Below, one piece after another: positions 17,333-20,424 of a stretch of DNA of 64,000 nucleotides (positions are counted from its first letter, which is position 1; each line of letters begins with the position of its first letter). Location of the stretch: the NCBI RefSeq assembly GCF_056746865.1, contig NZ_CM163382.1. One strand, written 5' to 3'. Position numbers and translations under genes: made by a program. Below the pieces are notes generated by a model. That model saw nothing but the letters and a program-made list of their open reading frames with translations, did no database searches and was not told the DNA's origin.

Positions 17333-18421
17333 TTAGAACTGGTAAACGATACCCACAGCTACGGTGTCGTCAGAACCTACGCCCAGTTTGTTGTCAGAAT
17401 CGATCTGGTTGATGATGTAGTCAACATAGGTGGACATGTTTTTGTTGAAGTAGTAGGTTGCGCCCACTTCAAAGTAGTTCACCAGATCAACATCACCGAT
17501 ACCTTCTACGTCTTTCGCTTTAGATTTGGTGTAAGCGATGGACGGACGCAGACCGAAATCGAACTGGTATTGCGCAACTAACAGAACGTCTTGCGTTTTG
17601 TTGGCGAAGCCGCTGATGTTTGTAAATTTATTAGTGATCGGCGTAGCGTTACGGGTTTCACCGTAGTTCGCTGCCAGGTAGATGTTGTTCGCGTCATACT
17701 TCAGACCAGTAGCCCACTGTTCAGCTTTTTTACCGTTGCCAAGAGGTTGAGCTTCTTGCAGGTTGGTACGGTCAGCGGCGCCATAAGCACCAACGATACC
17801 AAAGCCTTCGTATTCGTAGCTGATAGAACCGCCAACACCGTCGCCGTTAGAGCGGCGTGCAGTGTCACGCTCGTTTTTACCCAGGTACTGAACAGCGAAG
17901 TTCAGGCCATCAACCAGACCAAAGAAGTTGGAGTTACGATAGGTAGCAACGCCGCCAACACGACCAACGAAGAAGTCATCGCTGTATGCAGTATCACCAC
18001 CAAATTCTGGCAGCATATCGGTGTAACCCAGTGCGTCATAAACCACACCGTAGTTACGGCCGTAATCGAAAGAACCAACGTCAGCGTATTTAAGACCCGC
18101 GAATGCCAGACGCGTTTTGTTACCAGTTTGAGCGTCAGCGCCTTCAGAGTTGTTACCCTGGAAGTTATATTCCCACTGACCATAACCGGTCAGATCGGAA
18201 TTGATTTGAGTTTCCCCTTTAAAACCAAGACGGGCATAGGTCATGTCGCCATTGCCACCGTAACTGTTTTCACCGTTACCCTTGGAGAAATAATGCAGAC
18301 CGACAGCTTTACCGTACAGATCTACTTTGTTGCCATCTTTGTTATAGATTTCTGCAGCGTTTGCAGTACCTGCTACTAACAGAGCAGGGACGATCACTGC
18401 CAGAATATTGCGCTTCATCAT
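17333..18421 (-). CDS. ompF: Outer membrane porin F
   Basis: 362-aa ORF beginning [38 protein letters not shown] and ending in the C-terminal Phe beta-barrel signature. Confidence 0.97.
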
Positions 18422-18569
18422 TATTTATTACCCTCATGGTTTTTTTTATGACACCTGCCACTGCCGTCAATAAGTTCTGTCAATAAAAATTTACGGAACT
18501 ATTGATGAGAGTTTGGTGTCTTTATGTGTCTGCAGGCATCTTTCCATTCAAACTAACGTTTCGCTACCG

Positions 18570-18640
18570 TGAAAGTGCTACATAGATAAAGATTTGGTTT
18601 CAAAAAGAAAAAATATGTAACTAAAAGTAAAAATTAAGGA
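18570..18640 (-). promoter_or_regulatory. ompF promoter-proximal OmpR-binding region (F1-F3 sites)
   Basis: AT-rich block about 150-220 bp upstream of the ompF start matching the OmpR-box region as I recall it; coordinates approximate. Confidence 0.55.
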
Positions 18641-18981
18641 ACTTTGTGAACACCGTCATATTTCCATAGAGGCGTGATGATATTTACAGCAATTTTTATC
18701 TATTTATATGATTTCCTTATATTTAAATTAACTAAACGGAAATTTTGTTTCTGATGGAAACTTTATCGACCTGGCACAAAATCCTCTTTCAGACATCCAG
18801 AATGCCAAAAAATAGTATGAAAATTGTGCTATCAGCTAAGAAAAAACTAATCCGCAATAAGAATGCGGGTTATTTTTTGTGCGTAAATGTTGCAATGTAA
18901 TATTCCGTAACAGGATGATCGTTATGGCGGGGTTGCAAATAGATTGCTTGACTTAACAAACAGATAACTTGACAGAAAGGA

Positions 18982-19010
18982 TAAAAAAAGAGCCAGCGGG
19001 TGCTGGCTCT
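18982..19010 (-). terminator. Rho-independent terminator of asnS
   Basis: Stem agagccagc / gctggctct preceded by an A-run on the plus strand (T-run on the minus strand) just downstream of the asnS stop. Confidence 0.75.
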
Positions 19011-19023
19011 TGAAGACGCTAAA

Positions 19024-20424
19024 TTAGAAGCTGGCGTTACGCGGAGTACGTGGGAACGGAATCACATCACGCACGTTTTGCACACCAGTTACGTAAGCAA
19101 TCAGGCGTTCAAAACCAAGACCGAAACCGGAATGCGGAACAGTACCGTAGCGACGCAGATCGCGATACCACCAGTAATCTTCTTTATTCAGGCCCATTTC
19201 CAGCATACGCTCGTCCAGCACGTCCAGACGTTCTTCACGCTGGGAGCCACCAATGATCTCACCGATGCCCGGAGCCAGAACGTCCATAGCCGCAACGGTT
19301 TTACCGTCTTCGTTAAGGCGCATATAGAACGCTTTAATATCTTTCGGATAGTTTTTAACCACTACCGGTGCTTTAAAGTGTTCTTCCGCCAGATAACGCT
19401 CATGCTCAGAAGAGAGATCAACGCCCCAGTAAACTGGGTTTTCAAACTTCCTGCCGCAGTTTTCGAGAATAGTCACTGCGTCGGTGTAATCCACCTGCGC
19501 AAAATCGGCTTCAATGAAGCGTTCCAGACGTGAAACGGCATCTTTATCTACGCGTTCAGCGAAGAATTTCATGTCGTCAGCGCGTTCTTCGAGAACCGCT
19601 TTGAAGACATATTTCAGCATGGCTTCAGCCAGACCCGCGATATCGTTCAGGTTAGCAAACGCCACTTCCGGCTCCAGCATCCAGAATTCCGCCAGGTGAC
19701 GGCTGGTGTTGGAGTTTTCAGCACGGAAAGTCGGGCCGAAGGTATAAATTTTGGACAATGCGCAAGCGTAGGTTTCGCCGTTCAACTGGCCAGATACGGT
19801 CAGGAAAGACTCTTTACCAAAGAAGTCTTTGTCGAAATCCACTTTGCCCTGATCGTTACGCGGCAGGTTTTCCAGATCCAGCGTAGAAACGCGGAACATT
19901 TCGCCAGCCCCTTCGGTATCAGACGCAGTAATCAGTGGCGTTGAAACCCAGAAGAATCCCTGCTCGTTAAAGAAGCGATGCAGCGCCTGCGCCAGCGTAT
20001 GGCGAACGCGCGCGACGGCACCAATCAGGTTTGTGCGCGGACGCAGGTGAGCGACTTCACGCAGATACTCAATGCTGTGGCGTTTTGCCGCCATCGGGTA
20101 AGTGTCTGGATCTTCAACCCAACCAGCAACTTCAACCTTGCTGGCCTGAATTTCAAATTGTTGCCCCTGGCCCGGCGATGCCACGACTTTACCCGTCACA
20201 ATGACCGAGCAACCGGTGGTCAGACGCAGGACGTCTTCATTGTAATTGGGCAGAGAATTATTGATGACAGCCTGTACAGGATCAAAGCAGGAACCGTCAT
20301 AAACGGCGAGGAAGGAGATGCCAGCTTTTGAATCTCGGCGGGTACGTACCCATCCGCGCACGGTGACTTCGCTGTCAACGGCTACGCGGCCCTGGAGTAC
20401 GTCGGCTACAGGCACAACGCTCAT
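19024..20424 (-). CDS. asnS: Asparagine--tRNA ligase
   Basis: Track ORF 19024..20469; start moved to the internal Met [14 protein letters not shown] giving 466 aa; class II aaRS motifs present. Confidence 0.95.

Follow-up and report, generated by a model that had tools for sequence, protein, structure and literature searches.

Control of the porin gene ompF is the textbook paradigm of a two-component system, and on that score the region analyzed here teaches nothing new. Four OmpR sites have been described at ompF: F1, F2 and F3 activate transcription, and a weak distal site, F4, lies about 260 bp upstream and represses through looping (PMC3050692, PMC1489923). In the published model, high osmolarity leads to F4 occupancy, looping and repression (PMC3050692, PMC1489923, PMC543474). 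F4 has been reported to be absent in Yersinia (PMC3050692), and a static bend at the ompF promoter has been published (Mizuno 1987). Tiling arrays have also detected a transcript from the opposite strand between ompF and asnS, the C0240 of Tjaden et al., which Stead et al. called a putative small ORF and which changes in RNase mutants (PMC3082872).

The ompF-asnS spacer in this strain and across Enterobacterales

The window, by which we mean the whole 64,000-nucleotide stretch analyzed, has the gene order gloC-aspC-ompF-asnS-pncB-pepN. The ompF gene (17333-18421) and the asnS gene (19024-20424) both lie on the - strand, and the spacer between them occupies exactly 18422-19023, or 602 bp. The window is collinear with the genome of Escherichia coli CFSAN061770 at 99.998% identity, and 5424 of 5426 complete E. 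coli genomes carry the segment. In K-12 MG1655, the spacer is also 602 bp long and lies at 986983-987584 (window positions equal U00096.3 coordinates minus 968,561), and it differs from the spacer analyzed here at 12 positions (mean column identity of 99% over 641 alignment columns). Ten E. coli sequences showed 43 variable positions across the 602 bp, a level of variation that fits the use of this spacer as a source-tracking marker (PMC5007776).

The initial annotation had described an AT-rich intergenic region of about 600 bp that forms the largest noncoding, nonrepeat stretch in the window, and the composition and gap sizes bear this out. The G+C content of the spacer is 34.2%, compared with 51.8% for the window as a whole and about 42% on average for the 22 other gaps that are 100 bp or longer, and a 200-bp window gave a local minimum of 28.5% at 18600-18799. 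By the RefSeq annotation of CFSAN061770, the spacer is the largest gap, followed by the tRNA-Ser/hyaA (426 bp) and ompA/sulA (355 bp) gaps. The sole tandem-repeat call within it was a weak two-copy, 21-bp array in the A-rich F1-F2 stretch. No Rfam family reached its threshold in the spacer; a subthreshold AbsR28 match on the asnS terminator scored 22 bits against a threshold of 50. Elsewhere in the window, an IS1397 copy (IS3 family) lies between pepN and ssuB at about 24760-26110, according to the annotation of the matching genome, and is adjoined by an Rfam match to the REP-derived naRNA4 at 26191-26269. A PyrD leader (Rfam, 97.9 bits), an ordinary known element, lies at 30720-30793 upstream of pyrD.

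We retrieved the locus from many Enterobacterales by a scan with AsnS and scored conservation per 10 bp on an alignment of 14 sequences from 12 genera. A porin gene followed asnS in nearly all of the retrieved loci. The conserved parts of the spacer were the leader, the -10 and -35 elements, F1-F3, the F4 half-sites, the stem of the asnS terminator, and the segments at -132 to -103 (which holds a CRP-like box), -202 to -163, -272 to -263 and -302 to -293. A further conserved segment, at -382 to -323, spans F4, an A-run and a palindrome. The stretch from F4 to the terminator (18912-18980) was the least conserved of the spacer, at 0.34-0.6. In Enterobacteriaceae (loci L003-L013), asnS and the porin gene are separated by about 600 bp, compared with about 300 bp in Erwinia, Pantoea, Pectobacterium, Brenneria, Serratia and Yersinia (loci L014-L024 and L072), in agreement with the report that Yersinia lacks F4. 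This difference in length suggests that the distal 300 bp, where F4, the palindrome and the conserved blocks lie, are an Enterobacteriaceae feature added at the level of the family. In Superficieibacter electus (L025:4899-5690), the spacer reaches about 790 bp through an insertion of about 190 bp directly after asnS, which contains REP-like GC-rich palindromes and a duplicated terminator-like hairpin.

The synteny, the 12 differences from K-12 and the conserved blocks in 12 genera uphold the assignment of this interval as the ompF regulatory region. It is almost certainly the classical osmoregulated ompF control region of an E. coli strain close to CFSAN061770. That region is already known, and the initial annotation recognized it correctly. 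The control elements and hairpins that we located are as follows, with positions relative to the ompF start of transcription where these are negative.

18422-18531, - strand: ompF 5' UTR of 110 nt, identical to K-12, whose SD/AUG region is the MicF target
18538-18566, - strand: ompF core promoter, with -10 AAAGAT at 18543-18538, a 17-bp spacer and -35 TAGCGA at 18566-18561, identical to K-12
18570-18631, - strand: OmpR sites F1 (18631-18612), F2 (18611-18592) and F3 (about 18591/18589-18570), at -100 to -39, by homology to the footprinted K-12 sites
18583, - strand: substitution in F3, T to A in the ompF sense, at -52, private to this strain among those sampled
18645-18660, no strand assigned: CRP-like box TGTGAACACCGTCATA, centered at -121.5, with one mismatch to TGTGA-N6-TCACA
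18694-18733, no strand assigned: best-conserved distal block, ending in TTAAATATAAGGAAATCATATAAATAG, at -202 to -163, with conservation of up to 0.9 in 12 genera
18803-18794, no strand assigned: conserved block ATTCTGGATG, at -272 to -263, with conservation of 0.72 versus 0.45-0.6 in its flanks
18833-18824, no strand assigned: conserved block GATAGCACAA, at -302 to -293, with conservation of 0.80 versus 0.45-0.6 in its flanks
18841-18878, no strand assigned: palindromic hairpin with arms at 18848-18856 and 18864-18872 and A6/T6 flanks, resembling a bidirectional terminator
18881-18911, - strand: distal OmpR site F4, at -380 to -350, identical to K-12
18980-19011, - strand: intrinsic terminator of asnS, with its stem at 19011-18988, a U7 tract and a 3' end mapped at 18980

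Promoter, OmpR sites and conserved blocks

Conservation in the 14-sequence alignment peaked in the ompF leader (0.82-1.0). We take the length of the leader to be the established value of 110 nt, which together with the conserved -10 element places the start of transcription at 18531. MicF has perfect complementarity to two blocks around the ompF SD/AUG, of 11 and 9 nt: its nucleotides 18-28 match GGUAAUAAAUA and its nucleotides 1-9 match UAAUGAUGA. The core promoter block showed conservation of 0.85-0.99 in the 12 genera. Transcript maps of K-12 contain three further ends in this part of the locus. A + strand Cappable-seq start (score, 22.9) lies at window position 18530, one base from the ompF start on the opposite strand and without a convincing -10 element; it either marks divergent initiation or is an artefact of the high abundance of ompF mRNA. 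Two - strand 3' ends from Term-seq, one in the leader 68 nt before the ORF (window 18489; K-12 987050) and one 12 nt into the ompF ORF (window 18409; K-12 986970), suggest that ompF mRNA is terminated prematurely or processed.

Proximal OmpR sites had been expected near 18570-18640, and with the site definitions of PMC1489923 and PMC3050692, F1-F3 map by homology to positions inside that interval. The three tandem 20-bp sites and the weak F4 site about 260 bp upstream are thus all present by homology, and the GTTACA, TTTCTTTTTG and TGTAGCAC sequences of the F1-F3 region are kept across genera. Two substitutions relative to K-12 lie within F1-F3, at 18622 in F1 and at 18583 in F3. The other base was found at 18583 in all nine other E. 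coli sequences sampled and in all 12 aligned sequences from other genera or species. Among 5426 complete genomes, short-query BLAST found the exact 70-bp F1-F3 haplotype in three, namely CFSAN061770 and isolates from a duck and a chicken; this count is valid for exact matches, and low-complexity masking hides near matches. Since the substitution falls on an otherwise invariant F3 position, regulation in this strain may differ quantitatively from that in K-12. A rare F3 substitution of this kind could change the amount of OmpF and, through it, permeability to antibiotics.

We take the exact limits of F4 to be those established by Huang, Schieberl and Igo in 1994. Its pattern, GTTAC-N5-ATT(A/T)C, was retained in most of the Enterobacteriaceae sequences. 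The initial annotation had placed a distal OmpR site in an AT-rich block at 18840-18900; the last 20 bp of that block do fall in F4, but F4 itself extends over 18881-18911 and the block consists mostly of the palindromic hairpin.

Scans with OmpR and IHF matrices, which had been proposed as the way to check the region, did not discriminate. An OmpR matrix built from the ompC sites C1-C3, whose sequences we verified in K-12, scored at most 9.0 in the spacer, and shuffled sequences reached maxima of 7.9 +/- 1.6 (P = 0.23); F2 ranked 5th and F1 ranked 8th, and F3 and F4 were outside the top 15. The spacer has one match to the IHF consensus with at most one mismatch (18587-18599), and the count of such matches across the 64-kb window was at chance. 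The CRP consensus likewise occurred at chance in the window, with three matches found and 2.0 expected. Because the OmpR, IHF and CRP scans were all at chance, the support for these sites comes from homology and conservation. For the CRP-like box, conservation is what gives the match any weight as a candidate site: its block scored 0.82-0.91, and none of the 14 sequences from 12 genera varies in the TCACA half. IHF is a candidate factor for the best-conserved distal block (18694-18733), and its consensus fits that block poorly. The 10.5-bp phasing of AA/TT in the spacer modestly exceeded that of shuffled sequences (P of about 0.02-0.035), which is consistent with the published static bend. In the distal conserved blocks we also observed GATAGCAC, a sequence similar to the TGTAGCAC core of F3. 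A 17-nt direct repeat, CAAATAGATTGCTTGAC at 18936-18952 and CAAACAGATAACTTGAC at 18957-18973, lies between F4 and the asnS terminator, with its copies spaced at 21 bp; it is retained in Escherichia albertii only.

Hairpins, reading frames and transcription from the opposite strand

No stable hairpin had been noted in the spacer, and we found two. The asnS terminator is the primary asnS terminus in the TRS data (K-12 987541, window 18980; ratio of about 0.99), and its stem is kept across genera, with variation in the outer stem and loop. The second hairpin is the palindrome at 18848-18872, which folds with -13.7 kcal/mol on the + strand and -9.3 kcal/mol on the - strand in this strain and which in K-12 is a perfect 10-bp palindrome with -19.7 (about -20) kcal/mol on either strand. 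Neither K-12 Term-seq nor TRS lists a 3' end at the palindrome on either strand. Covariation of the palindrome did not exceed that of shuffled alignments (73.5% of cells paired, with 150 of 500 shuffles as high; 11 sequences), and changes in its right arm within E. coli (18865 and 18867) are uncompensated. Its best-conserved part is the loop plus one arm, which suggests a constraint at the level of DNA rather than an RNA stem. These observations argue against a role of the palindrome as an RNA structure or as support for an sRNA. A function as a second asnS terminator is unnecessary, the first being about 99% efficient, and the T-run on the - strand is poorly conserved.

On the + strand, opposite to ompF and asnS, we located the following features.

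18683-18712, + strand: sigma-70-like promoter TTTACA-18-TATGAT from a promoter scan, apparently inactive
18745-18900, + strand: 51-amino-acid ORF that begins with TTG, lacks both an SD and a mapped transcription start ahead of it, and crosses the palindrome
18896-18910, + strand: promoter in F4, TG-T-AATATT / TAATAT (18898-18903), with a start at 18910
18910-19083, + strand: small RNA that runs antisense to the asnS 3' end, about 102 nt long if it stops at 19011 and about 174 nt long if it stops at 19083
18924-18956, + strand: 10-codon ORF MAGLQIDCLT (13 codons from an ATG at 18915), with AGGA 8 nt upstream and located just after the mapped start

Cappable-seq of K-12 lists a + strand start at U00096.2 position 986694, which corresponds to window 18910, with a score of 74.5, about twice that of the start assigned to pepN. 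The conversion from U00096.2 to U00096.3 uses an offset of +777 here, which we checked on the pepN-assigned start, then found 7 to 8 nt after TACAAT. The start at 18910 lies within F4, 7 nt after a TAATAT that is preceded by TG. This -10 element is invariant in the 10 E. coli sequences and in E. albertii and reads GAAAT or GAAAC in other genera, and the promoter appears, from this comparison, to be confined to Escherichia. Two + strand 3' ends lie downstream, one at the base of the asnS terminator hairpin (K-12 987572, window 19011; TRS, labelled ompF.asnS.IGR) and one antisense to asnS (K-12 987644, window 19083; Term-seq). On the + strand, the sequence after the hairpin at 18988-19011 is GAAGACG rather than a U-tract, so that the end at 19011 looks like exonuclease trimming of a read-through RNA that reaches 19083. 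The fold of the + strand RNA gave a z-score of -3.2, with most of the signal coming from the shared terminator hairpin.

Three kinds of public data, each obtained in K-12, therefore support the existence of an RNA of about 100 to 170 nt, which is probably the C0240 transcript. The RefSeq annotation of K-12 has no feature in the ompF-asnS spacer, and we found no functional characterization of an opposite-strand RNA from this spacer in the searchable literature. Judged against what is expected of an sRNA gene, the RNA has its own start in the K-12 data; a U-tailed terminator, conservation beyond the genus and membership in an RNA family were not found. The initial annotation had named transcript data revealing an independent gene in the interval as evidence that would count against it. 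Such data exist in part, as the start at 18910 and the ends at 19011 and 19083. Most likely the RNA is a by-product of the AT-rich F4 core, which serves as an extended -10 promoter.

We weighed this reading against the possibility that the distal third of the spacer is a functional gene. By analogy with micF-ompC, a promoter embedded in F4 and under the control of OmpR-P would produce the C0240 RNA, which would act as a cis-antisense RNA on the asnS 3' end or as a trans-acting sRNA. The strength of the start at 18910, the two 3' ends, the altered array signal in RNase mutants, the fold z-score (with the reservation about the terminator hairpin) and the invariant -10 element in Escherichia are what such a gene would predict. 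However, the body of the RNA (18912-18980) coincides with the least conserved part of the spacer, the promoter is missing outside Escherichia, the + strand carries no U-tract and the 19011 end looks trimmed, and there is no Rfam match, K-12 RefSeq annotation or characterization in the searchable literature, all of which makes a functional gene unlikely. Slightly less probable still is a function of the F4 promoter itself, either as the source of an RNA antisense to the asnS 3' end that OmpR-P would switch or through competition between RNA polymerase and OmpR-P at F4 in ompF repression.

Two other readings concern the rest of the spacer. The palindrome could be the terminator of a + strand sRNA of about 160 nt (18719 to 18880) that starts from the 18683-18712 promoter, is divergent from ompF and lies between F1-F3 and F4. 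The promoter fits 10 of 12 consensus positions, the hairpin with its T6 tract is terminator-like (-13.7 to -19.7 kcal/mol), and the + strand T-run, a TATGA(T/A) element and two internal blocks are conserved across genera. Its -35 element is not conserved, though, and the transcript maps contradict it: Cappable-seq lists no + strand start in U00096.2 986373-986625, where the start would be expected at about 986503, and the hairpin has no 3' end (three K-12 datasets, covering few growth conditions, so that a stress-induced RNA may have escaped them). The helix shows no covariation, the arm changes within E. coli are uncompensated, conservation is centered on the loop and one arm as for a DNA site, and the whole predicted RNA folds no better than shuffled sequences (z = -1.2). 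We therefore rejected this sRNA model on the K-12 start and 3'-end data, the lack of covariation and the fold z-score, and we regard the existence of such an sRNA as very improbable. A convincing promoter and terminator pair (18683-18712 and 18848-18878) contradicted by the transcript-end maps and by the lack of covariation is a caution on the use of motif matches. The least probable reading, which we hardly credit, is that the spacer encodes a small protein, through either the 51-amino-acid ORF or the 10- or 13-codon ORF (18915/18924-18956). These ORFs are present, a partly similar reading frame occurs in Escherichia, Citrobacter, Phytobacter and Leclercia, and the "putative small ORF" label of C0240 points the same way. 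The initial annotation saw no ORF with a plausible RBS, a statement that does not hold for the 10-codon ORF, whose AGGA is well spaced. Conservation nevertheless led us to judge both frames noncoding. The 51-amino-acid ORF, with its TTG start, runs through the hairpin, is cut to 42 amino acids in K-12 and is closed or frameshifted in Kluyvera, Superficieibacter and Enterobacter sp. BIGb0383. The 10-codon ORF is stopped in O157:H7 (TGC to TGA at 18947), carries an Ala-to-Val change in MS69-1 and has no ATG in E. albertii. A 61-amino-acid hypothetical protein is annotated in the CFT073 ompF locus map, with its exact position unstated in the Figure 1 legend (PMC1489923); it is probably an overannotation, like the 51-amino-acid ORF here.

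Proposed mechanism and comparison with known systems

The identities and positions of the elements, their conservation in 12 genera and the modest A/T phasing were read directly from this locus and its alignment. Read from asnS to ompF on the - strand, the order is the asnS terminator, about 70 poorly conserved bases, F4, the palindrome flanked by A/T tracts and the conserved blocks, followed by the CRP-like box, F1-F3 (-100 to -39), a weak sigma-70 promoter and the 110-nt leader that pairs with MicF. OmpR-P would bind and loop this DNA as the literature describes for the homologous region. At low OmpR-P levels, F1-F2(-F3) would be occupied and RNA polymerase recruited. At high OmpR-P levels, F4 would be occupied as well, the curved AT-rich spacer of about 260 bp would loop, and ompF would be turned off, with MicF pairing at the SD/AUG adding translational repression. 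Superimposed on this arrangement, the Escherichia-specific + strand promoter within F4 would yield a small RNA antisense into the asnS 3' end. In the K-12 data F4 thus coincides with an active promoter on the opposite strand, and this strong start is absent from the textbook looping model.

Among the related systems, micF-ompC offers the likeness of a small RNA transcribed away from a porin gene, out of its OmpR-bound upstream region. The difference is that micF is conserved, belongs to an Rfam family, ends in a U-tailed terminator and acts on a known target, features that are all missing from the + strand RNA here. The locus also resembles convergent or bidirectional terminators, in that the asnS hairpin marks a + strand 3' end at its base as well, but this hairpin has no U-tract on the + strand side. 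The ompF regions of Yersinia, Erwinia, Pectobacterium, Serratia and Photorhabdus have the asnS-porin synteny, F1-F3, the promoter and the leader in common with E. coli and differ in having a spacer of only about 300 bp without F4.

The closest described system is the ompF region of K-12. Compared with it, 3 of the 12 substitutions in this strain lie in or beside F1 and F3, one of them being the rare change at 18583 (-52), and the internal palindrome contains an imperfection that reads as a U-G pair on the + strand and as an A-C mismatch on the - strand. The locus and the 602-bp length are shared, and F4, the core promoter and the 5' UTR are identical in the two strains.
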